From a virus, in IMG/VR virus record IMGVR_UViG_3300033182_000678, positions 1 through 64,000 of that record: 64,000 bases of DNA. One strand, given 5' to 3'. The notes beneath the pieces were generated by a model. That model was given only the letters and a program-made list of their open reading frames with translations. It was not told where the DNA came from and ran no database searches. Below are positions 32,616 to 44,048 of the stretch, in pieces; the stretch's first letter is position 1; each line of letters begins with the position of its first letter. The translations under genes and the position numbers were made by a program.

Positions 32616-35351
32616 TTAGAAGTTAATACTCACTCCAATATTTGCATATCTTGGTGTTCCTAAGAATACCTCAGCGTTATGTGGAGCGTGTACTTTATCA
32701 CCCCAACTATTGTATTGTGAATTATCAACTGCATCTTGTACAAATACTTCATCAAGAGCATTGAAGATATGACCTGTTAAGGAAATATCATATCCCTTGA
32801 TTGGAAGTTTGTATGATGCGTGTAAATCAAGTTTTGAGTAGCCTGGTGCTTCCCAAACTTGAGCTCTGTCTGCATCTGAATCACTACCATCGTATTCACG
32901 AGCTGATGGTGACCAATCTGCATAGTTTTTGTCGTATGTCTTGTATAGTGCCTGTAGTCTTAGACCTTTTAATGGTTTAAGAGTAACACCTAAAATATAA
33001 GATGTTTGTGGCATATCACCAACATATAGACCATCAAGAGCATATTGATACTCTGTAGTTGTTAATCCAACTACTTGACCTTCTTCATTATACTCATTCT
33101 CTTGATAAGTACCCTCTGCATCTCCATCAAATTTCCAATTACCAAATGATGCAATTAAATCAAGTTCAACTAAATCATTAGGTTTTACTTTGGTTTCAAT
33201 TTCAATACCTGAGTGTTTTTGATTTACACCTCTTAGGAAGATAATATCAGTATCACCTGATGAACCTTGACCTGTTGTTACAGATTTTGTAAGGTTTCTA
33301 TCTTGCCAATCAGTATCATAGGCACTTACTCTAACTCCAAGTTTTTGTGTACCGAAGTTTGCACCAATCTCATTATGTAGGAACTTTTCGTTCGCTGGGT
33401 CTGATGCTACGGTTCCATCAAAGTAGATAACATTATCTAAGATAGGAGCTTTTTCTACAAGTCCTGTATTTACGAATAATCCAAGATTATCGTTTACATT
33501 AAATAATGCACCACCTTTAACTTGGTAAGTAGTGATTGGGTCTGCAGTTATTACTGCATCCTCAATAGTGAAGTGGTCTTGATAAGAGTATTCAATACTT
33601 GATACTCCACCCATACCATATAGGTTTAGTTTTTCTGTAGTGTAATTACCTTGTACAAATCCACCAATCCAATCTACGGTTGTTTCATTGAAGTATGCAA
33701 TCTCGTCACCGAGTCTTACGACTTTACCTTCTTCAAAGTTGTCGTCTGCATAATCAACATAGTAATCACCACCCAATAAATCACGAACTTCACGAGCGTG
33801 TTCTATACGAGCAGTTCTCCAATCAATACCTGTTTGTAATTCTAAATTATCACTAACTACATAGTTTAGTTTAGAAATCAAACCATAGGTATTTTGACGA
33901 TTAATAGAGTTTCTTAAGATACCTGTTGAACGATTTTCAGTAATTGAGAAGTTCTCATCAATGTTATCAGAATTTTGTGCAATCTCAGCATCCCAATCCC
34001 ATGTCCAAGGTGAACTTGCATACCAAGCATTTCCTTCAATGGCTGGTTTTCTACTGACACTACCATAAGTTCCAGTACCACCACCAGAACCACCACTCCA
34101 ATACAATACTGAACTTAGTCTTGTCTTGTCATTGATGGTTAAGAAGTGATTTAAATTCACTAATGGTTTGTGAAAGAAGTTTTCTCTTTCGTTCAAGAAG
34201 TTCTTGTTGAATCTACTTGTTGTGTTCGCTCCATACATATACCAGTATTGTTTACCTGTATATGATGGGTCAATAGGTGCGACATTCTGATTGAACAATC
34301 TACCAGCTTCAGTAGAGAATTTGTTACCTTCTGCAAATGCATCAGTATCATATCCATCAATACTACCTGCTAACTCTTGTGAGTAAGTTGCAATATTCTG
34401 TTTGTATAGATTTTGTCCATGTCGTTGTGGAGCACCGATGGCGTATAATTCAAATCGTTGGTCTTCACTTACTGCATAACTACCACCAAAGTAGTATGCC
34501 CAAGCATCAGTCCATGTACCATCTATAATTCCATCACCAGTTTTACGAACAATAGTTCCACTTAAAGCCAACTTGTCATTTAATAATAGACCAGTATTGT
34601 AGTTGAAAGTAGTTTTAAGAAAACCACCATCTCCAGCTTCTTGTTTGAACTTCCCACCTTTTTCAAAAGATGTAGGGTCGGTTATGATGTTCATAGTTCC
34701 ACCAATAGAAGGTGTTGCCAAATTAACAGCTGATAGACCTCTCTGAACCTGAATTGAAGATGTAGCATCACCTACTCCATCCCAATTAGACCAGTAAACC
34801 CATCCGTTCTCCATATCATTTTGGGGAACACCATTTATCATCACTGCAACATTTCTTTGATTAAAACCACGAATGTTGATACGAGCATCACCCGCACCAC
34901 CACCTTGTTGTGTTGCATATACACTTGGTGTAGTGTTAAGAATCATTGGAATGTCTTGTGAACCAAGTCTTACTTCCATTTCTTCTTTACTAACATTAGT
35001 ATAGGCCACAGGTGTTGTTTCAGATGCACGAGATGCTAACACCTCAACATCTGATAAGGAAACTACATCAAAATCCAATACGAAGTTTAATGTAGTGATA
35101 CCCTCAACAACTACTGATTTAGTTATTGAAGAGTAACCAATGAAAGAAGCCACTACATCATAGGTTCCATTAGAAACATCAATAGAAAAAGCACCATCTT
35201 TATCTGATACTCCACCTAAATCTGTTCCAAGAACTACAACATTAGCTCCCTCAAGTGGTTTTGAGTCAACATCAACAATAGTTCCAACAATAGATTGTGC
35301 GAACAATCCTGTCATCAATACCATTGATGCTAATAGATTACGATATTTCAT
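32616..35351 (-). CDS. TonB-dependent outer-membrane receptor with N-terminal carboxypeptidase-regulatory-like domain
   Basis: Signal peptide, PLEGANV/ASFIGY domain, plug INIRGF...INGVP, C-terminal Phe. Confidence 0.93.
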   Translation of the reverse strand: MKYRNLLASMVLMTGLFAQSIVGTIVDVDSKPLEGANVVVLGTDLGGVSDKDGAFSIDVSNGTYDVVASFIGYSSITKSVVVEGITTLNFVLDFDVVSLSDVEVLASRASETTPVAYTNVSKEEMEVRLGSQDIPMILNTTPSVYATQQGGGAGDARINIRGFNQRNVAVMINGVPQNDMENGWVYWSNWDGVGDATSSIQVQRGLSAVNLATPSIGGTMNIITDPTSFEKGGKFKQEAGDGGFLKTTFNYNTGLLLNDKLALSGTIVRKTGDGIIDGTWTDAWAYYFGGSYAVSEDQRFELYAIGAPQRHGQNLYKQNIATYSQELAGSIDGYDTDAFAEGNKFSTEAGRLFNQNVAPIDPSYTGKQYWYMYGANTTSRFNKNFLNERENFFHKPLVNLNHFLTINDKTRLSSVLYWSGGSGGGTGTYGSVSRKPAIEGNAWYASSPWTWDWDAEIAQNSDNIDENFSITENRSTGILRNSINRQNTYGLISKLNYVVSDNLELQTGIDWRTARIEHAREVRDLLGGDYYVDYADDNFEEGKVVRLGDEIAYFNETTVDWIGGFVQGNYTTEKLNLYGMGGVSSIEYSYQDHFTIEDAVITADPITTYQVKGGALFNVNDNLGLFVNTGLVEKAPILDNVIYFDGTVASDPANEKFLHNEIGANFGTQKLGVRVSAYDTDWQDRNLTKSVTTGQGSSGDTDIIFLRGVNQKHSGIEIETKVKPNDLVELDLIASFGNWKFDGDAEGTYQENEYNEEGQVVGLTTTEYQYALDGLYVGDMPQTSYILGVTLKPLKGLRLQALYKTYDKNYADWSPSAREYDGSDSDADRAQVWEAPGYSKLDLHASYKLPIKGYDISLTGHIFNALDEVFVQDAVDNSQYNSWGDKVHAPHNAEVFLGTPRYANIGVSINF

Positions 35352-35381
35352 AATCATCTCCTTGTTTGTTTACTTGTGAAC

Positions 35382-35414
35382 AGCACATTTTTATTCTGGT
35401 GTGCTTTCTGCCAG
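35382..35414 (-). promoter_or_regulatory. candidate H-type pseudoknot in the receptor mRNA leader
   Basis: CUGG-CAGAA-AGCACA-CCAG-AAUAAAAA-UGUGCU. Confidence 0.45.
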
Positions 35415-35428
35415 GGTATGTGAAATTT

Positions 35429-37843
35429 TTAACCATTTGCATATTCTTGGTCATCATTATCACCTGCGGTTGGTGTGATTTCTTCTATATCACAAAAATC
35501 ACCATCACAGAATTTCTCAACATTTGCCTCTTCTGCTTTAATTACACCGAATGATAACTTACCTAATTTTTTAATTTGTTTATTGTATTCTTTTTCATCT
35601 ATTGCCTCATATGGCATTTGTGGATATGCACCCCAATCATGTCTTGGTAATAGTGATATACCCTTTAGATGATATTGGAAATAATTCAATACATTTGGTA
35701 TTTCATCTCCCTCTGTTTCAGGATTGAATGTTACGGTACAACTTACTTGGTTATCCGCCCAATGTCTTTGTAGGAATGCTGCTAATGAGAATTGTTCCCA
35801 TATACTTAAATCTTTAGCAGTTCTAATTCCCTCACCTACATCAACTGGTATCTCAACAACTAATGTGGAATCTTCTGAACCAAAAGCAGGTTCAATTTTG
35901 TAACCTGCTTTTTTCAATGGTTCTACTAAATCCGAATTAATTGATAACCTAATTCTTCTAATGTAAAATCTTGATTCAGGATAATGTAAACCTGGTGTTG
36001 AACCTGCTAATAATGATACGGTTCCACTTGGTTTTACACTTGTGGTTTTGATTGATTTTGGAATTGCAAACCAATCTGAATACATCTTATCCCACTCTTG
36101 TATTGTATCATATCCATTCTCCAACCAATTTTTAAACTCATCTAATCCACGATTAGTTACAAACTGAGCTACACCACTAACACTACATCCAATTCTTCTG
36201 TTTCTCAACATCACTCTGTTTGTGTCAGCCCAATGTGTTCTACCAAGTGTTACAGTCTTGGCATATAGATAAGCATATTTAAGTGTTCTCTGATAATCCT
36301 CTAACGAATCATGATTACTTGGAAATGTTTCCACTAAACAACATAACTCATATGATTCAAGTGATTGTTCAAGACAATTATGGATAAACAAACCAGATGA
36401 ACACAAATACTTATCATCCAAAGTAGATGTTATCACACCAAAATTATGTGTATCTTCAACGGTCATATCATAAACATCTTCATATCCATAAAACTCAACT
36501 GATGCAATTTTATGATTCCAAATACCCTGATTGACCATTCCTCTTTTAACATTGGAACAAGAATAACTACAAGTTTTTCTTTTGGATGCTTGATATTCTG
36601 TAAGTGTTTTATGTTCGTTACACACAGGACAATTCCAATTTACCCAAATTGTTCTTTCTTTTCTTTTATCTGATATATGCTTTCTAACACTTTTAGTCAT
36701 TCCATTTTTAATTGATTCAATCATAAAATCTCTTTGATTATTCCAATTTTCTTTTGATTTTTTACCAATCTTTTTTAATGTAGATTTTTTATGATGTTTA
36801 CCATACATACTATTTCTTTCACCAAAATGACCACCATTTTCAAGAGTAGTTTTTTTCATCTTTTCTACATTTACAGGGTCATGCATTGGATTTTTATCTA
36901 ATCTATGTAATCTACTATGTTCCGATTGAGTTATTACATCTAAATTATCCCACCTGTCATTTGTCTTATCAAAATCTTTATGATGAATAGCATATTCTTT
37001 AGCATCAGGTATGTAACCAAGTTCATATTCTGTAATCAATCTATATTGTCTTATACCACTTGCTCTTTTACCAGTTCCTCTTATGTTCCTATAACCTTTG
37101 TTGTCAAAACTATTAAATGGAAATACCGATTCACCTTCTTGTAAATCTTTAAGTTCTTTATATTCACCATTTCTCAACATAATTTTATGGTCAGGTGTAG
37201 CTAACAAATTAGAACCGTCATCTAATGTTAGTTTCCATATTTCAGTATTTTCTTTTGTTTTCCAAGTTTTAGTTGATTGTTTAATAACTACTTTACCATT
37301 TTTATCAACAGAATAAACTGGATATTGAGTACCAACCAAATCTTTAATTGGAACTGCGTTTCTACCATCAGCTACTGCCACTAATGTATCACCAACTACA
37401 CAAGGATTACCACCAGCTACTCTATGGTCTTTATCATCCCCACCATTCTTCATTCTTGAATAGTGTCTCATGTTATCTAACCAAGCCAAACCTGGTTCTC
37501 CGTTATCTACGATTCTTTTTGCGATTTCTGTATAATCCATACCGAGTTCTGCAAATACTGAATTGTTTGATGTCCAACCATATTGGTCTCTATGTGGATT
37601 GACTTTGTAATTTTTCAAGTCTAAATACTCTTCTGAGTCAGGGTCACCAAATACAATTTCTGCAGTATTGTGTGATACAATAGTTTCATCAATATCATTT
37701 TTTGGATTTTTAACAAAGAAGTGATGTTTATCTTCTACTTCAATATCCCACGTCTTTTCTATTTTTCCTTCATCTATTATATCCATAATAGTAACAAGCT
37801 CAAAATCTTCTAAATTAAAATCATTTATACCATATTGATTCAT
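35429..37843 (-). CDS. nrdJ: class II ribonucleotide reductase C-terminal part; begins with split-intein IntC and contains a cis intein
   Basis: IVSHN|TAEIVFG; GGNP|intein|CLEQ..ELCCLVE; TSVKPSGTVS; C-terminal FCDGDFC. Confidence 0.93.
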   Translation of the reverse strand: MNQYGINDFNLEDFELVTIMDIIDEGKIEKTWDIEVEDKHHFFVKNPKNDIDETIVSHNTAEIVFGDPDSEEYLDLKNYKVNPHRDQYGWTSNNSVFAELGMDYTEIAKRIVDNGEPGLAWLDNMRHYSRMKNGGDDKDHRVAGGNPCVVGDTLVAVADGRNAVPIKDLVGTQYPVYSVDKNGKVVIKQSTKTWKTKENTEIWKLTLDDGSNLLATPDHKIMLRNGEYKELKDLQEGESVFPFNSFDNKGYRNIRGTGKRASGIRQYRLITEYELGYIPDAKEYAIHHKDFDKTNDRWDNLDVITQSEHSRLHRLDKNPMHDPVNVEKMKKTTLENGGHFGERNSMYGKHHKKSTLKKIGKKSKENWNNQRDFMIESIKNGMTKSVRKHISDKRKERTIWVNWNCPVCNEHKTLTEYQASKRKTCSYSCSNVKRGMVNQGIWNHKIASVEFYGYEDVYDMTVEDTHNFGVITSTLDDKYLCSSGLFIHNCLEQSLESYELCCLVETFPSNHDSLEDYQRTLKYAYLYAKTVTLGRTHWADTNRVMLRNRRIGCSVSGVAQFVTNRGLDEFKNWLENGYDTIQEWDKMYSDWFAIPKSIKTTSVKPSGTVSLLAGSTPGLHYPESRFYIRRIRLSINSDLVEPLKKAGYKIEPAFGSEDSTLVVEIPVDVGEGIRTAKDLSIWEQFSLAAFLQRHWADNQVSCTVTFNPETEGDEIPNVLNYFQYHLKGISLLPRHDWGAYPQMPYEAIDEKEYNKQIKKLGKLSFGVIKAEEANVEKFCDGDFCDIEEITPTAGDNDDQEYANG
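36377..37402 (-). mobile_element. contiguous 342-aa intein with HNH endonuclease, NUMOD3-like and Zn-finger segments
   Basis: CVVGDT start, TPDH block B, HHKDFDKTNDRWDNL, NSMYGKHH, IHN|C end. Confidence 0.92.
37667..37843 (-). mobile_element. split intein C-fragment (59 aa) of nrdJ
   Basis: WDIEVEDKHHFFV...SHN followed by Thr+1. Confidence 0.9.
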
Positions 37844-37854
37844 AATTTTATCTC

Positions 37855-38805
37855 CTAATAAACGTCTAACTTGAAATCAAATCCAAGTGATTTCACAGCG
37901 TTAAATTTTAACTTATTTTTTTCTTTGTCAAATTCAAGTGTATAAGTACTTTTTGTTTCAACAATTAGATTATCTTTGGGTATATAAAAATCTGGATAAT
38001 ATCGTCTTTTTTTACCATCATAATTATACCATATTTCTGGCATATCTCTCTTTCTATATAAAATATCATTTTCTTTAAATCCTAATTCAAATAACCTATC
38101 TAATGTTTTATTTTCATACCCTTGAATTTTAATTTTCTTTCCCGATGGCATTATATAAAATTTATTAGTGTTATAATATCCACGATACCCACTCAATGCC
38201 TTTTCTGCAAACTCTGGATTATGCATTGCATTTTCTACACCATACAATTCTAACATTCTGTCTCTAAATTCTTTAGTTCCAAATTTGAAATAATCTTTTC
38301 TACCGTACCTTTCAATAATTGTTTCTTTAACCTTCTTCTTAAACTCATCTGTCTGTGTATAATAATCAACGCCATATTCTTTATTTATAAAATCTTTTCT
38401 AATTTGTTTATACTCATCAGAATTCACATACGCTGTAGCACCGTATTTTTCTAAATTAGTTTTCATTGTCTTATGTTTAATTTCCGGAATTTGTTGTGCA
38501 TTATTCACACCGTATCTTCTTTGGAAAGTTTTTATCTTCTTCTCCATTATTTCAGTTTCATTACGCTTTTCTTGTATTTTTTTAATAGAATCTGGAAATT
38601 GAAAGGTGTTTTCATATCCATATTTTTCCTTCATCAATTTAGATTGGTGTTTATATCTCATTTTTTTTGCTTTATTACTCCACGTACATTTCTTACTACA
38701 ATAAAATAAACCACTTTCAAGTCTTAGCCTATAATCTCTATTCTTTTTTGTTTCATACTCTACTCCACAAATCCTACATTTTATTTTTACAATTTCAAGT
38801 GCCAT
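37855..38805 (-). CDS. free-standing putative homing endonuclease between the nrdJ halves
   Basis: Zn finger, repeated (E/R)KYG units, C-terminal YYPDFY...IVETKS PD-(D/E)XK. Confidence 0.8.
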   Translation of the reverse strand: MALEIVKIKCRICGVEYETKKNRDYRLRLESGLFYCSKKCTWSNKAKKMRYKHQSKLMKEKYGYENTFQFPDSIKKIQEKRNETEIMEKKIKTFQRRYGVNNAQQIPEIKHKTMKTNLEKYGATAYVNSDEYKQIRKDFINKEYGVDYYTQTDEFKKKVKETIIERYGRKDYFKFGTKEFRDRMLELYGVENAMHNPEFAEKALSGYRGYYNTNKFYIMPSGKKIKIQGYENKTLDRLFELGFKENDILYRKRDMPEIWYNYDGKKRRYYPDFYIPKDNLIVETKSTYTLEFDKEKNKLKFNAVKSLGFDFKLDVY

Positions 38806-38867
38806 TTTATTTCTCCTACATTCAATAATAAATATAAGAAAAGATAAAAAACATACGTTCCCTGATA

Positions 38868-39968
38868 CTATTTTTTTGGTTTTACAAGAAAATCTTTATC
38901 TCTATTTATATCCTTTACCATCTTCCATTCAAATCCAGTATCTTGATTATACACTAATAAAGTGTGTTTTTCTGTAGCTTCATATTCTGTACCATTAAGA
39001 GTTTTTATTTTAAGAACTTTTTGCTCTCCACTATCAAACGTATTCAATACTCGTTTATAACCATCAGCAGTTAAAACTTTATCATCCCTCGTTATTTTTT
39101 CCATTTGTTTGAAACCATCTTCAGTAAGCACTTCATACCATTTAGGTAAGCATCTTCTTACATTACCTGCCACAACACATTTACCGATTAAATTCATAAT
39201 ATCTACGATGGTTGTGATTGTGATTGGTTCACCACTATTTTTTTCTAATACTTTTCTAATATCATTATGAACTTCTTCTAAAGGGTCTGGCCCACTTGAT
39301 ACTCCACCAAAACCTTTGATAGGTTCTCCTGCTAATCTGATTTTACTATAATCAAATTCAACTGGTGCCTGACCATGAAAATAACTCTCTAATAATAACC
39401 TTAAAGATTCTACCCAACCCTCACGAGTATCAGGTATTTCAAACACTTGTGATGTTCTATCTTTATCAATACCCTTAACTATTATTTCTCCAGCACCTTT
39501 TGTATCAAAACCAACACCAACACCTAACATACTTGCATCCATTAAGAAACAAAATGGTTTTGAATAATCTTCTTTAATGGTTTTTGTTGATACAAATGCA
39601 CAATTATTTAGTGCTGCATATAAACCTTTTTCTTCGGTGATTGGTGTTCCCATAGCCCACAATCCACGACCTGGTGGTAAGAATTTCATATTGAAAATTC
39701 TATCATACATTTCTTGAGCAGATTTTTGAGCTTGCCAAGGATTCCAACCTAATTGATGTGATTCAATCCAATTCATTTGCATTGTATAAGTTCCCTCTAC
39801 AACTCGTTGTACGGTTTCCCACCAACGCTCATTTTTTCCGTCTTCTTTAATTCTTGAGTATGTTCGCATATAAACTAATTCACCTAATCCGTTAAAACCG
39901 AATGGTGCTTTTTTTCTTTTGTACTTACTTACAAAATTTTCTGATAACTTAAACTTATGTTCTCCCAT
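38868..39968 (-). CDS. nrdJ: class II ribonucleotide reductase N-terminal part ending in split-intein IntN
   Basis: RTYSR, PPGRGLW, LNNC, GVGVGFD, VVAGNVRR|CLPK. Confidence 0.93.
   Translation of the reverse strand: MGEHKFKLSENFVSKYKRKKAPFGFNGLGELVYMRTYSRIKEDGKNERWWETVQRVVEGTYTMQMNWIESHQLGWNPWQAQKSAQEMYDRIFNMKFLPPGRGLWAMGTPITEEKGLYAALNNCAFVSTKTIKEDYSKPFCFLMDASMLGVGVGFDTKGAGEIIVKGIDKDRTSQVFEIPDTREGWVESLRLLLESYFHGQAPVEFDYSKIRLAGEPIKGFGGVSSGPDPLEEVHNDIRKVLEKNSGEPITITTIVDIMNLIGKCVVAGNVRRCLPKWYEVLTEDGFKQMEKITRDDKVLTADGYKRVLNTFDSGEQKVLKIKTLNGTEYEATEKHTLLVYNQDTGFEWKMVKDINRDKDFLVKPKK
38871..39152 (-). mobile_element. split intein N-fragment (94 aa) of nrdJ
   Basis: CLPKWYEVLTEDG, block B ATEKH, ends at a stop codon. 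Confidence 0.9.
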
Positions 39969-40096
39969 TGTAACAAACTCCTTATTGTAAACTTACTTTT
40001 TAATTGTCTTCACTATATATGTATTATATATATGGTGGAATACTCCTGAATATATATAAATTTTTTTAATTTTTTATTAAAAGTTTTTTAGAAGTT

Positions 40097-40567
40097 TTAT
40101 TCAAACCCATCTGAATCAAAATCCTTCTTCTTTTGAGCCAAGGTTTTTCTAATATACTCATCTGCATTATTCATTTTACCTTGTGCATCTCTTCCACCTT
40201 GAGTGCTACTTTCATAAATCATAATGTAACCTGTATTGGTATTTATGGTTGCTGGAAAGGTTATTCCATCTGGCCCAAATCTATTTTTAATAACATGAAA
40301 ACGACCTGTATTAGCAATCTTATCTTCCACTTTTCTACTCATACTCATAACAAAATCAGCTGTCATAACTTTACTATAATCTTCACTAACCTTTTCAGCA
40401 CCAATCACATCTTCTTCAAGAGCAGAATTGTGTGAATACACATCATTAACGAAAAACATATGCGTATCTACAACTGTAATATCAACAGTATATTCTTCAC
40501 CCACCAATTCAATCAAAACGATTTCATCCATTACAAAATCTTCTGGATTTAAGTTATGCATTTTCAT
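40097..40567 (-). CDS. replicative helicase C-terminal part beginning with split-intein IntC (40427-40567)
   Basis: VDITVVDTHMFFVNDVYSHN|SALEED; KVMTADF, IKNRFG. Confidence 0.92.
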   Translation of the reverse strand: MKMHNLNPEDFVMDEIVLIELVGEEYTVDITVVDTHMFFVNDVYSHNSALEEDVIGAEKVSEDYSKVMTADFVMSMSRKVEDKIANTGRFHVIKNRFGPDGITFPATINTNTGYIMIYESSTQGGRDAQGKMNNADEYIRKTLAQKKKDFDSDGFE

Positions 40568-41534
40568 TTACAAACTCCTTACATTTTTTAATCACACCAA
40601 CCATATCATTTTTATATTCATTATCATTTATCCGCAAAATTTTATATCCTTTACTTTCTAAAATAATATCTCTTTTAACATCAAGATTTTTATCGTGCCA
40701 ATACTCACAATCAAATTCAATTATAGAATTTCCACACTTAAAATCCGGCATTATTATTTTATTCGGATAATTACTCTCGTGATTTACAAAAAACTGATAT
40801 TCTTTATTTAATTCAGCAAAATAAGATTTCTTCTTTAACTCATCTTCAAGCTTTTCGTATACTCCCCAAAATAATTCTTGTGATATCTTACTATATCCTT
40901 TATTAAATAATTTTGATGATGTTTGAGTAATAGCTAATAACCATTCTTTATACTTTTCTTTTCCAGCTTCATATCCATACTTTTCAATCATTGTTTCTTC
41001 TGTTATTGCCTTTTTCTTGTTGCTTTCTTTATATCTTTCTAAACCTAGCTTTTCACCATACTTTTTTACATAATATTCCAATGAAGAATTATCTTTTATA
41101 TTTCTACAAATTTCTAACCCTCTTTCTTCACCAAATTCATCAATGTATCTTTGTTTAGATACCAAATAACCATGACGGCTATTCCTTTTTTTCCACCTAC
41201 TATATCCATCTTCTATACCATACCGTTTTTGGTATTCTTCAAGTGATAATCCATTATTCCACTTTTTATTCTTAAAATTTTCCCTTTGAGTTTTAAGTTT
41301 CTTATCTAATCTTTCTTGCCATTTTATTTTACCCAATTCTTCACCATATTTTTCTACACAGGCTTTTAATGAAAATGTATTTTTCTTTTTAATCATTTCA
41401 TTATACCAATCTTTACCATGTTTTTTTATCAATTCTTCTTTTGTTTTACCAAAATTCTTTTTATGATTTTTCCACTTACGAAGTCCTTCTTCTTCGCCAT
41501 ACTTTTTTATCCATGCTTGTTTAACTGATGCCAT
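40554..41534 (-). CDS. free-standing putative homing endonuclease (Vsr/DUF559-like) between the helicase halves
   Basis: Repeated KYGEE.G units; PDF..IIEFDCEYWH...RD..L..KGYKILRI. Confidence 0.8.
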   Translation of the reverse strand: MASVKQAWIKKYGEEEGLRKWKNHKKNFGKTKEELIKKHGKDWYNEMIKKKNTFSLKACVEKYGEELGKIKWQERLDKKLKTQRENFKNKKWNNGLSLEEYQKRYGIEDGYSRWKKRNSRHGYLVSKQRYIDEFGEERGLEICRNIKDNSSLEYYVKKYGEKLGLERYKESNKKKAITEETMIEKYGYEAGKEKYKEWLLAITQTSSKLFNKGYSKISQELFWGVYEKLEDELKKKSYFAELNKEYQFFVNHESNYPNKIIMPDFKCGNSIIEFDCEYWHDKNLDVKRDIILESKGYKILRINDNEYKNDMVGVIKKCKEFVNENA

Positions 41535-41588
41535 TATTGTTCTCCAATATCTTACTCATATATAAATATAACAACATCACAAAAATTT

Positions 41589-42908
41589 TCACTTTTTATT
41601 CACTTTTTTTGTAAATAATTTATCACCCACTTTCAATCCAGTTGCAATTGATTTCAATTTACCGTACATAACAGGTAAATCGTGATTAGATGAGATAGTT
41701 ATTTCTTTACCAGACTTTAATTTAACTTTATATACTGGTTGCTTCTCAACTGGAAAAACTTTTGTTACTTTTTTATATCCATCGTGAGTTAAAATTTCAT
41801 CACCCTCTTTTATTTTTCCAATTTCCATTTTACCATTTTCAGTTTCCACTTTATCAGTTAAAATGTGGCAACGATTTGCCTGAGATGCAGTCCATACTGG
41901 TATGTTGAACTCTCCTGCCATACCTCTCAACTCTTCATAGATATGTCCTAACTGATGTCTTTTTTCACTAAAATGTTGTGTGGATTTCATGATGTCTGCA
42001 TAATCCACAATCACTAAATCTGGTTTGAGTCCCTGCATTTCACATTGTTGTAAATGTGCAGTAAGTGTATTAACACTTGCAGTTCTTGTTGGATAATATT
42101 TTATTATCAACTCACCCTTTAACTTTGAAATCTTGTTTTGTACTTCATCTTTATAATATTGTAAGTTACCTGTTGGTTGTCCACTTACAATTGTATCATA
42201 TCTTAACCCTACATATTGTGCATTTAACTCTAATGTATAATGAATTACGGTTTTACCTTGTTTGACTGCATGTGCACCTAATGCCTGAAGAGTCCATGAC
42301 TTACCAATACCTGCTGGAGCAACAATAACACCAAGTTCACCACCTGCCAAACCACCATCCATCAAATCATTTACACTATCCCATTGTGTTGGTAAACATT
42401 CTCTTGTTTGTTTAGTTAATCTCTCTTCCAAACCTGTAATATAATCATGACCAATGTCTCTTTCTACACCTGCCTTCATTGCATTATCTATAACACCTTT
42501 TATCTCATCATACTTTTGATTATCTAATAACTCAACTGATTCCATGATGGCACTTTTGATAACTTGGTTCTTACAGAACTCAAGTGATTTTTCTTTTACA
42601 AATTCTAAATCAGGTGATTCACGATGTTGCCATGCACTTCGTAATGAATCAACAATACTCGTCTTTAGTACATCATTTTCCACATCATCAATGACAACTT
42701 TTAATGCTTCCATTGTCGGTGGGGATTTATACTTTTTAAAATAATCTATTATTGATTTTACAAGAAACTTGTTTGAATCAGAATCAAAATAACTTACTTC
42801 TAAAATGTCACCGATAGTTTTTATAAACTTCGTATCAACTATTAAAGATGTAATAATTTTACTCTGAAAAGATGTTCCATATTTAATTAAAGATTCACTC
42901 ATAACCAT
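41589..42908 (-). CDS. replicative helicase (gp41/DnaB-like) N-terminal part ending in split-intein IntN (41592-41870)
   Basis: APAGIGKS, VDYAD, WTASQANR|CHILTDKVET...SSNH. Confidence 0.93.
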   Translation of the reverse strand: MVMSESLIKYGTSFQSKIITSLIVDTKFIKTIGDILEVSYFDSDSNKFLVKSIIDYFKKYKSPPTMEALKVVIDDVENDVLKTSIVDSLRSAWQHRESPDLEFVKEKSLEFCKNQVIKSAIMESVELLDNQKYDEIKGVIDNAMKAGVERDIGHDYITGLEERLTKQTRECLPTQWDSVNDLMDGGLAGGELGVIVAPAGIGKSWTLQALGAHAVKQGKTVIHYTLELNAQYVGLRYDTIVSGQPTGNLQYYKDEVQNKISKLKGELIIKYYPTRTASVNTLTAHLQQCEMQGLKPDLVIVDYADIMKSTQHFSEKRHQLGHIYEELRGMAGEFNIPVWTASQANRCHILTDKVETENGKMEIGKIKEGDEILTHDGYKKVTKVFPVEKQPVYKVKLKSGKEITISSNHDLPVMYGKLKSIATGLKVGDKLFTKKVNKK

Positions 42909-42917
42909 TTATAATTA

Positions 42918-44048
42918 TCATTTAGTTTTCGGAAATACACGATTTATTTTATCATTATAGTTTTTTATTTCCTCGTAGTCTCCACTTTCTGTTCCCATAA
43001 ATTTTAAAATATTTTCTAAGTCAATTTTTGTTTTGTTTGATACACCATCCATGTACTTTTCAAATAAACTAATAACTTTAAACTTATCTTTTTCATGTAG
43101 GTTCTTTATACATACTCCATCAGGTGCCCACGCATAGTGAAATGAAATGTCATCAGTATTAGTTATAATACCTAAGTTTATAAATTGTTCAATGGATTCA
43201 AATATGTGAAATATATTATATGTAGATACGGTATATTGTATTCCATAATCTATATTATATTCTTTTAGTTTATTTATATTCTTTACAAAGTTATCATGTT
43301 TAAAACCAACTCTGATATACTCACCTAAATCATATAACCCATCACAAGATACTGCAATGTAAATCGTACCTTTTTCTTTTATCTTATTCCAATACTCAAG
43401 TAATGATTCTTCTTGATATTTTAATGTAGATAAGTTTGTATTGTAATGTAGGTGTAGTTTTAATTCTTTATCAGTAACAAACTTTAGGATGTCCATGTGT
43501 TCAGGCATTATCAAAGGTTCACCACCCGCAAAATATATCTTCTTAAGTTTACCTAAGTGTTTCTTTAGATTCTCCATAAAGTTATTCTCTACTTTAATAA
43601 CTTTATTTACATCAGGTGATAATCCACCCAATAACATTTCAGGTTCATACCAAGATGATGAGAAGTCATGACAACATGTTCTACATTTAAAATTACATTG
43701 ATTTGAAAATCTAATATCAATATACTGAAACTCTAATGGAACTTCACCATCAGTAGTTTTTGGTATTTCAAACTCATTATTACTTGGTTCTAAAAATCCT
43801 TGTCGTGCACTATACTCTCCTCTATCTTCTGCTAAATAACAAATATCACATAATTTATTTCTTTCTCCATTCAACATATCCATACGAAGTTTTTTCATTT
43901 CTTCTGAATTAAATACTTCACCTATGGATTCTCTGTTTAAATTATGTGAGTATATGGTTTCTGCAATACAACAAGGTTTCACATGACCTGATGGTTGTGC
44001 ATATAAATGTACAAATGGTAAGGGACAAAATGTTTTACTATTACTCAC
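42918..44048 (-). CDS. radical SAM protein with N-terminal twitch/SPASM domain
   Basis: CPLPF...PCC, CDIC, CNFKCRTC, FAGGEP, YNTN. Confidence 0.88.
   Translation of the reverse strand: MSNSKTFCPLPFVHLYAQPSGHVKPCCIAETIYSHNLNRESIGEVFNSEEMKKLRMDMLNGERNKLCDICYLAEDRGEYSARQGFLEPSNNEFEIPKTTDGEVPLEFQYIDIRFSNQCNFKCRTCCHDFSSSWYEPEMLLGGLSPDVNKVIKVENNFMENLKKHLGKLKKIYFAGGEPLIMPEHMDILKFVTDKELKLHLHYNTNLSTLKYQEESLLEYWNKIKEKGTIYIAVSCDGLYDLGEYIRVGFKHDNFVKNINKLKEYNIDYGIQYTVSTYNIFHIFESIEQFINLGIITNTDDISFHYAWAPDGVCIKNLHEKDKFKVISLFEKYMDGVSNKTKIDLENILKFMGTESGDYEEIKNYNDKINRVFPKTK

Follow-up and report, generated by a model that had tools for sequence, protein, structure and literature searches.

How can a single gene that is broken by a free-standing nuclease gene and interrupted by two inteins still specify one ribonucleotide reductase (RNR) chain? 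The question is raised by the nrdJ locus at positions 35,429 to 39,968 of a viral DNA stretch of 64,000 nucleotides (nt), referred to here as the window (positions 1 to 64,000 of IMG/VR record IMGVR_UViG_3300033182_000678). The record has 79,974 bases and an estimated completeness of ~42%, and its source is an uncultured marine T4-like phage. The minus strand is the coding strand for all genes in the window, which also encodes a T4-type family B DNA polymerase (phrog_262, E 3.5e-180). Pfam matches identify the host gene as nrdJ, which encodes a vitamin-B12-dependent class II RNR. This nrdJ very probably hosts two independent selfish elements, namely a fractured split-intein cassette and a one-piece HNH intein, and both would have to splice to yield an NrdJ protein of ~675 amino acids (aa).

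The locus consists of three co-directional minus-strand open reading frames (ORFs). The first (38868-39968, 366 aa) encodes the N-terminal part of NrdJ (PF17975, 1.3e-43; PF21995, 1.7e-15) followed by the N-terminal half of a Hint domain (IntN). The second (37855-38805, 316 aa) encodes a DUF7487 protein, and the third (35429-37843, 804 aa) starts with the C-terminal Hint half (IntC) and continues with TAEIVFGD and the rest of NrdJ. Their parts, in coding order, are as follows (a slash in the text marks a splice junction):

39153..39968, minus strand: nrdJ N-extein, 272 aa, ending VVAGNVRR; PF17975 and PF21995 matches; 88-94% identity to uninterrupted relatives.
38871..39152, minus strand: IntN, 94 aa, CLPKWY...DFLVKPKK; stop codon at 38868-38870; weak Pfam Hint and Intein_splicing matches.
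38806..38867, minus strand: 62-nt spacer, with a Shine-Dalgarno-like GTAGGAGA 7 nt before the nuclease ATG.
37855..38805, minus strand: free-standing homing-endonuclease-like gene, 316 aa; PF24308 (DUF7487), 8e-46; PHROG "homing endonuclease" families.
37667..37843, minus strand: IntC, 59 aa, ending IVSHN; AGGAGA 7 nt before its ATG, overlapping the nuclease stop codon.
37403..37666, minus strand: middle extein, 88 aa, from Thr+1 (TAEIVFGD...) to ...HRVAGGNP; joined to both neighbouring exteins in 75 relatives.
36377..37402, minus strand: one-piece intein with nested HNH endonuclease, 342 aa, CVVGDTL...GLFIHN; PF14890, 6e-19; PF13392 (HNH_3), 5.5e-10.
35429..36376, minus strand: C-extein, 315 aa, starting CLEQSLES, and stop codon; 82-95% identity to relatives.

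The two insertion sites are GNVRR/TAEIV for the split intein (site 1) and GGNP/CLEQ for the HNH intein (site 2), with site 1 lying 88 residues upstream of site 2. An IMG/VR scan with the N-terminal half of NrdJ returned at least 597 related loci. Among the best 80, which were examined, 75 have an uninterrupted NrdJ (extein identity 88-94%) that runs through as ...GNVRR-TAEIV... and ...GGNP-CLEQ(S/T)..., so the intein boundaries are exact. The predicted mature protein of 272+88+315 = 675 aa compares with a median of 663 aa, and a maximum of 674 aa, in uninterrupted relatives. An uninterrupted relative aligns with Lactobacillus leichmannii RTPR (PDB 1L1L) with E 4.5e-100, which places site 1 at R319/S320 and site 2 at P407/C408 of that enzyme. 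C408 is the established thiyl-radical cysteine of RTPR. Cr-LKS4 and Pavo were considered as further intein carriers and rejected, as their matches past residue 272 stem from RNR genes of ordinary length. The original prediction, made from the sequence of the window, had given the coordinates, the lengths of 94, 59 and 342 aa and the junctions, and all are correct when judged by the ORFs and the 75 uninterrupted relatives. It had also placed an endonuclease gene between the intein halves, which is the DUF7487 ORF at 37855-38805; it had assigned the +1 residue of the HNH intein to the thiyl-radical cysteine position, in agreement with the RTPR alignment; and its proposal that one RNR chain requires one trans- and one cis-splicing event is supported by the gene anatomy.

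Both halves of the split intein have the residues expected of a class 1 intein. IntN carries Cys1 (CLPKWY), a block B of T-E-K-H and the tail DFLVKPKK, while IntC has an acidic N-terminal end (DFNLEDFEL), block F DIEVEDKHHFFV and block G IVSHN, followed by Thr+1. Cys is the residue right after GNVRR both in the window and in 10 other N-terminal halves, and the block B TxxH, block F, the C-terminal HN and a +1 Thr or Ser are all present. Across allele alignments, which comprise 10 alleles for IntN, the conserved elements are Cys1 (CLP), block B T-x-x-H, DFNLEDFEL, block F DIEVxxKHxF and block G SHN; the acidic IntC end also occurs in four related proteins (P0019, P0020, P0021 and P0010). The halves have opposite charge: IntC has 5 K/R versus 15 D/E, and the IntN tail is basic. 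The nearest solved structure to IntN is that of the gp41-1 intein (6qaz, E 6e-5). When the PDB was searched by sequence with IntN (E<=10), gp41-1 was found and no NrdJ-1 chain, the presence of an NrdJ-1 entry in the searched copy being unconfirmed, and the corresponding search with IntC alone gave nothing meaningful. Strong ribosome-binding sites of the AGGAG type stand 7 nt ahead of the nuclease ATG and also ahead of the IntC ATG, and the latter supports the long, 59-aa form of IntC. The halves are encoded in separate ORFs and would be made on separate polypeptides, with association and ligation predicted to follow. Several NrdJ subfamilies include N-terminal halves of 353-382 aa that end in DFLVKPKK-like tails; their IntN identity ranges from 93% down to 49%, and the split-intein family is old and diverse.

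The second intein occupies residues 148-489 of the 804-aa ORF. It has Cys1 (CVVGDTL), a block B of T-P-D-H and the end GLFIHN/CLEQS, so that it sits, with its splicing blocks intact, right before the equivalent of P407/C408, and the thiyl-radical position provides its +1 residue. It matches DnaE inteins with E 5e-13 and is 86% identical to the intein of two related loci (L060 and L062). Inteins of RNRs are found most often at NP/C (Dassa et al. 2009, PMC2677866), and any rarity attached to this site was overstated. Ratios of nonsynonymous to synonymous substitution (dN/dS) of 0.04-0.16 indicate that every part of the locus is under purifying selection. Against locus L001 the ratios are 0.043 for IntN, 0.060 for IntC, 0.124 for the nuclease and 0.06-0.08 for the exteins; the HNH intein has a ratio of 0.157, and the exteins range overall from 0.06 to 0.10. 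The locus contains no frameshifts and no internal stops.

From this anatomy the following pathway can be proposed. The three ORFs would be co-transcribed and separately translated; a promoter and terminator scan, including the 62-nt spacer, gave nothing above shuffled expectation. The acidic IntC and the basic-tailed IntN would associate into a gp41-1-like Hint fold, and class 1 splicing would proceed from a Cys1 thioester through attack by the Thr+1 hydroxyl to a branched oxyester. Cyclization of the terminal Asn and an O-to-N shift would then restore ...GNVRR-TAEIV.... The HNH intein would leave the C-terminal half in cis, with the thiyl-radical Cys as its +1 nucleophile. Splicing, as well as its order and speed, is what we infer from these features. 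During co-infection the nuclease could cut naive alleles, which would spread the cassette or the nuclease alone.

Several observations weigh against this reading. Splicing at both sites is a prediction from sequence. A single-sequence AlphaFold2 (AF2) fold of the P0010 one-piece mini-intein, a relative at the same site, had a predicted local distance difference test (pLDDT) score of 34 and was unusable, so the assembled Hint fold is predicted from sequence homology. No sequencing run contained more than 27% of the words of the stretch, and the sole RNA run with a share of them (X20) covers only extein pieces of relatives, parts without cover being uninformative. No co-conversion tract was found in the 48-nt extein flanks of occupied alleles; either whole-cassette homing into this lineage is not recent, or recombination ends inside the intein. 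Finally, with an estimated ~42% of the genome in the record, nrdJ could be dispensable if a further RNR is encoded elsewhere.

Three other explanations of the locus can be considered against this background. The intein halves could be dead for splicing and act only by clasping two RNR fragments to each other non-covalently, a situation like that of the fragmented NrdA of Aeromonas phage Aeh1, which has no intein. PMC3045599 describes fragmented RNRs that assemble without splicing, and nrdJ-a/b of phiYS40 is another such case. A clasp would not need catalytic residues, however, and Cys1, the block B Thr and His, the penultimate His, the terminal Asn and a +1 Thr or Ser are kept across alleles at 49-70% identity; dN/dS is as low as 0.04-0.06 in the intein halves. 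A clasp is therefore improbable. Alternatively, nrdJ might be a decaying pseudogene, broken by nuclease and intein insertions, in a phage that uses another or a host RNR. Degenerating intein-invaded RNR genes have been reported in Campylobacter phages, and the incompleteness of the record leaves room for a second enzyme. The only PF02867 match in the 80-kb record is the nrdJ C-extein, however, and no second RNR large subunit was found in that record; the low dN/dS and open frames of the exteins also argue against decay, as does the persistence of split alleles in several diverged lineages. We consider a pseudogene quite improbable. RNA-level removal by a group I intron or similar element, with coincidental Hint-like ends, is barely credible even though phage RNR genes commonly contain group I introns with homing endonucleases, because excision of exactly 37667-39152 would need a ribozyme for which no signal was found (an Rfam scan of 35000-43200 at a permissive E<=1 gave zero matches), the flanks read in frame as Hint halves and are significantly homologous to solved inteins, and the nuclease and IntC ORFs each have their own ribosome-binding site. 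Two elements removed by protein splicing thus remain the preferred interpretation.

That the two elements are independent is indicated by their distribution among relatives. Six IMG/VR loci (L001-L004, L086 and L091) have the same fractured arrangement of split intein and DUF7487 gene without the HNH intein, while L060 and L062 have the HNH intein without the split intein, so these are two separate mobile elements. Among the best 80 relatives, 4 have the split cassette alone and 2 the HNH intein alone. Both occur together in no other IMG/VR locus fetched (L001-L080 and L086-L091). Protein searches, in contrast, reveal two further C-terminal halves with IntC and an HNH intein at NP/C (P0020, with Ser+1, and P0021, with Thr+1), and P0010 has a one-piece intein at site 1 and another intein at GVNP/C. 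P0008-P0013, P0020 and P0021 were examined as protein sequences. The two-intein combination is therefore recurrent and not unique, and the DnaE-1 locus of Dassa et al. (PMC2677866) had already paired a split intein with an additional in-frame intein; the rarity that was first attributed to combined trans- and cis-splicing was overstated. Empty and occupied alleles coexist, since contigs from marine metagenomes match the cassette and the HNH intein with ~94-95% identity and other contigs from the same marine samples run from VAGNVRR straight into TAEIVFGDPH. Synonymous divergence (dS) between the window and L001 is 0.74-1.39 for the cassette, with flanking exteins saturated at ~2.1; against L060 it is 0.53 for the HNH intein and 1.1-1.3 for the exteins.

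Recent transfer is indicated for the nuclease gene. In a comparison of window positions 37403-39968 with L086:1850-5336, nucleotide identity is 0.71-0.87 in the exteins, 0.82-0.92 in IntN and ~0.90 in IntC, whereas the nuclease gene is 0.96-1.00 identical (mostly 0.99-1.00) over ~800 nt, and identity falls off through the intein halves. A near-identical nuclease core in diverged host genes marks a very recent transfer of the nuclease between intein-bearing alleles. The nuclease apparently travels between such alleles independently of its intein, and this transfer fits the model of Dassa et al., in which the integration point of the nuclease is inside the intein. The protein begins with a Cys-rich segment, continues with about six helical repeats of the KYG type and ends in a PD-(D/E)XK nuclease domain (D272, E283, K285); E231, D272, E283 and K285 are invariant in 40 homologues. 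An AF2 model (pLDDT 92.6) shows a small beta element at the N-terminus, then these roughly six repeats as helices and, at the C-terminus, an alpha/beta domain with the D...(D/E)xK triad on a restriction-endonuclease-like fold. Superposition of the modelled C-terminal domain with VIA-align matches TnsA (Z 7.9), Vsr (Z 6.3) and I-Bth0305I (Z 5.8), and also VRR-NUC and Hjc. For the model, the top fold matches are modest (Z<8) yet uniformly PD-(D/E)XK nucleases. A Foldseek search of the PDB with the model gave no match at E<=0.001, and no meaningful match came from a search of the PDB with the nuclease sequence. The family is very large, with 12,213 representative clusters at a cutoff of E<=1e-3 and 418 at 1e-30, and its tblastn relatives in cultured phages are annotated as Hef, homing endonuclease or HJR-family nuclease. 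Site-specific cleavage of the empty allele followed by gene conversion is a putative activity of this nuclease, the target of which we infer only.

Other forms of intein occupy the same site. NrdJ of Thermus phage phiLo (L081:2974-5823, MH673673) has a 269-aa one-piece intein at GGTRR/C...VHN/S, the N-terminal part of which is 41% identical to IntN. In MH673673 this 950-aa protein is annotated as "ribonucleoside-triphosphate reductase" and the intein is not marked. A further one-piece intein, of 299 aa and with Thr+1, occurs in P0015. The metagenomic proteins P0010 and P0011 have a 164-aa one-piece mini-intein at GNVRR that consists of IntN, an 18-aa in-frame relic (LVIETKSKYTYEIKKEKN) and IntC. 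The P0010 linker retains this relic of the DUF7487 nuclease core, with 17/31 identities to residues 272-302 of the window nuclease (E 7e-6). P0010 looks like a fractured locus that was healed into one piece, probably re-fused by deletions.

The residue at the +1 position was central to the original prediction, which held that a naturally split Thr+1 intein would be unusual. Thr follows GNVRR in all 79 loci that are readable at this junction, encoded by ACT, ACA, ACG or ACC, and GNVRRTAEIV occurs in each of the 116 uninterrupted relatives listed; L. leichmannii RTPR has Ser at this position. Because Thr is invariant in uninterrupted relatives, Thr+1 is native to this NrdJ clade and no adaptation. 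Alleles of the same intein family in other NrdJ subfamilies have Ser+1 (IISHN/SAEIAIG in P0020; IVSHN/SAQIAIG in P0010), and the family appears compatible with either residue, so any special status of Thr+1 was overstated. The claim that the combination is unusual holds in part. The characterized natural split inteins gp41-1, gp41-8, NrdJ-1 and IMPDH-1 are all Cys1/Ser+1, and a natural Thr+1 split intein is uncommon among characterized tools; no description of a characterized mesophilic Cys1/Thr+1 natural split intein was found in the literature searched. It is not unprecedented, however, since Neq Pol is a natural split intein with Ser1/Thr+1; Mxe GyrA is Cys1/Thr+1 and was split artificially, and Cys1/Thr+1 makes up ~12% of inteins overall. 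Neq Pol, from the PolB of Nanoarchaeum equitans, is like the window intein a naturally split class 1 intein with Thr+1. It differs in having Ser1 (it is cysteine-less), in being thermophilic and archaeal, and in its unlinked gene halves with no endonuclease; the window intein starts with Cys1, its source is a cold or temperate marine phage, and its halves are linked, a nuclease gene lying between them.

Closer counterparts are the fractured genes of marine metagenomes (gp41-1, gp41-8, IMPDH-1, NrdA-2 as well as NrdJ-1) described by Dassa et al. (PMC2677866). As in those loci, one strand carries an N-extein with IntN, a short spacer, a free-standing endonuclease gene and IntC with a C-extein; the host proteins are DNA-metabolism enzymes of marine phages, and a Cys1 class 1 intein is broken at the position of endonuclease insertion. 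Differences lie in the site (GNVRR/T here versus NPC/S in NrdJ-1 and NP/C in NrdA), in the +1 residue (Thr here, Ser in that set), in the length of IntC (59 aa versus 33-54 aa) and in the spacer (62 nt versus 27-51 nt). The NPC/S site of NrdJ-1 is one residue C-terminal of NP/C (PMC2677866), so the earlier statement that NrdJ-1 inserts at another site is right: its insertion point is not matched by the window site, which is 88 residues upstream. A literature search, which covered published papers, gave nothing specific on an insertion at R319/S320. The nuclease also differs, which is a descriptive and not a layout-defining trait. The fractured genes of 2009 had only GIY-YIG and Vsr-like nucleases (PMC2677866), and the Hef-like PD-(D/E)XK protein DUF7487 is therefore a further nuclease family in this layout. 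Its C-terminal domain superposes on the I-Bth0305I/Vsr-like family (Z 5.8-7.9 including TnsA), but its motif is D...ExK and not Vsr/EDxHD. It shares Hef-type annotations with Hef and other free-standing PD-(D/E)XK nucleases of T4-like phages, although the window gene is inside an intein-coding region. The gp41-1 intein (PDB 6QAZ/6RIZ) is the closest solved relative of IntN and has the same polarity of basic-tailed IntN and acidic IntC (PMC2677866); it differs in host protein, site, Ser+1 and an IntC of 37 aa, whereas the longer window IntC has an acidic extension that is conserved and 8 aa inserted ahead of block G. RNR genes with several inteins are known, for example that of Trichodesmium erythraeum with four. 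The window shares site 2 with such genes and with other NP/C inteins, and differs in that one of its two inteins is split.

A second fractured gene, for a gp41/DnaB-type helicase, is directly upstream of nrdJ (40097-42908, minus strand), with the following parts:

41589-42908, minus strand: helicase N-terminal half, with IntN after SQANR/C.
40554-41534, minus strand: DUF559/Vsr-like ORF.
40097-40567, minus strand: IntC, ...YSHN/S, and helicase C-terminal half.

The helicase IntN matches the gp41-1 intein (6qaz) with E 8e-14, and the helicase split intein is thus more closely related to gp41-1 than the nrdJ one is. Identity between the helicase and nrdJ split inteins is 39% for IntN and 37% for IntC, and their charge polarity is alike; with two related split inteins in one phage, cross-reaction must be avoided. 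An ORF with a radical-SAM domain (42918-44048, minus strand; phrog_14086, E 5e-20) is directly upstream of the helicase. On the other side, between the phage DNA polymerase and nrdJ, a 913-aa ORF (32616-35357, minus strand) resembles a TonB-dependent receptor (CarboxypepD_reg and Plug), which is unusual cargo in a phage replication module. A link to cofactor uptake is conceivable because NrdJ needs adenosylcobalamin.

The nrdJ locus is a well-preserved further case of the fractured layout recognized in 2009, at a different site and with a different nuclease. Tentatively, and with somewhat less than even confidence, it may be assigned to a diversified family, so far undescribed, of natural split inteins that are mesophilic, have Cys1 and belong to the gp41-1 lineage; these would occupy an RNR site (R319/S320) unreported for split inteins, splice natively with Thr+1 or Ser+1 and be mobilized by a third endonuclease family (DUF7487). 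The marine phage split inteins gp41-1, NrdJ-1 and IMPDH-1 are the fastest protein-ligation tools, and all are Ser+1. A relative of gp41-1 that natively takes Thr+1, with sister alleles that take Ser+1, would widen the choice of junction residues, and a gp41-1-like Cys1/Thr+1 intein may have some potential as a tool. Some evolutionary interest also attaches to the nuclease, as an independently mobile gene, and to the healed mini-intein. One site is found empty, with a large one-piece intein, with a split intein and free-standing nuclease, and with a re-fused mini-intein that retains a nuclease relic; this series, together with independent nuclease movement, is relevant to the gain and loss of endonucleases by inteins and to the breaking of inteins by them. 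If this interpretation is true, the survival of large one-piece, healed mini and split forms would make the split-to-contiguous transitions proposed in 2009 traceable within one allele.

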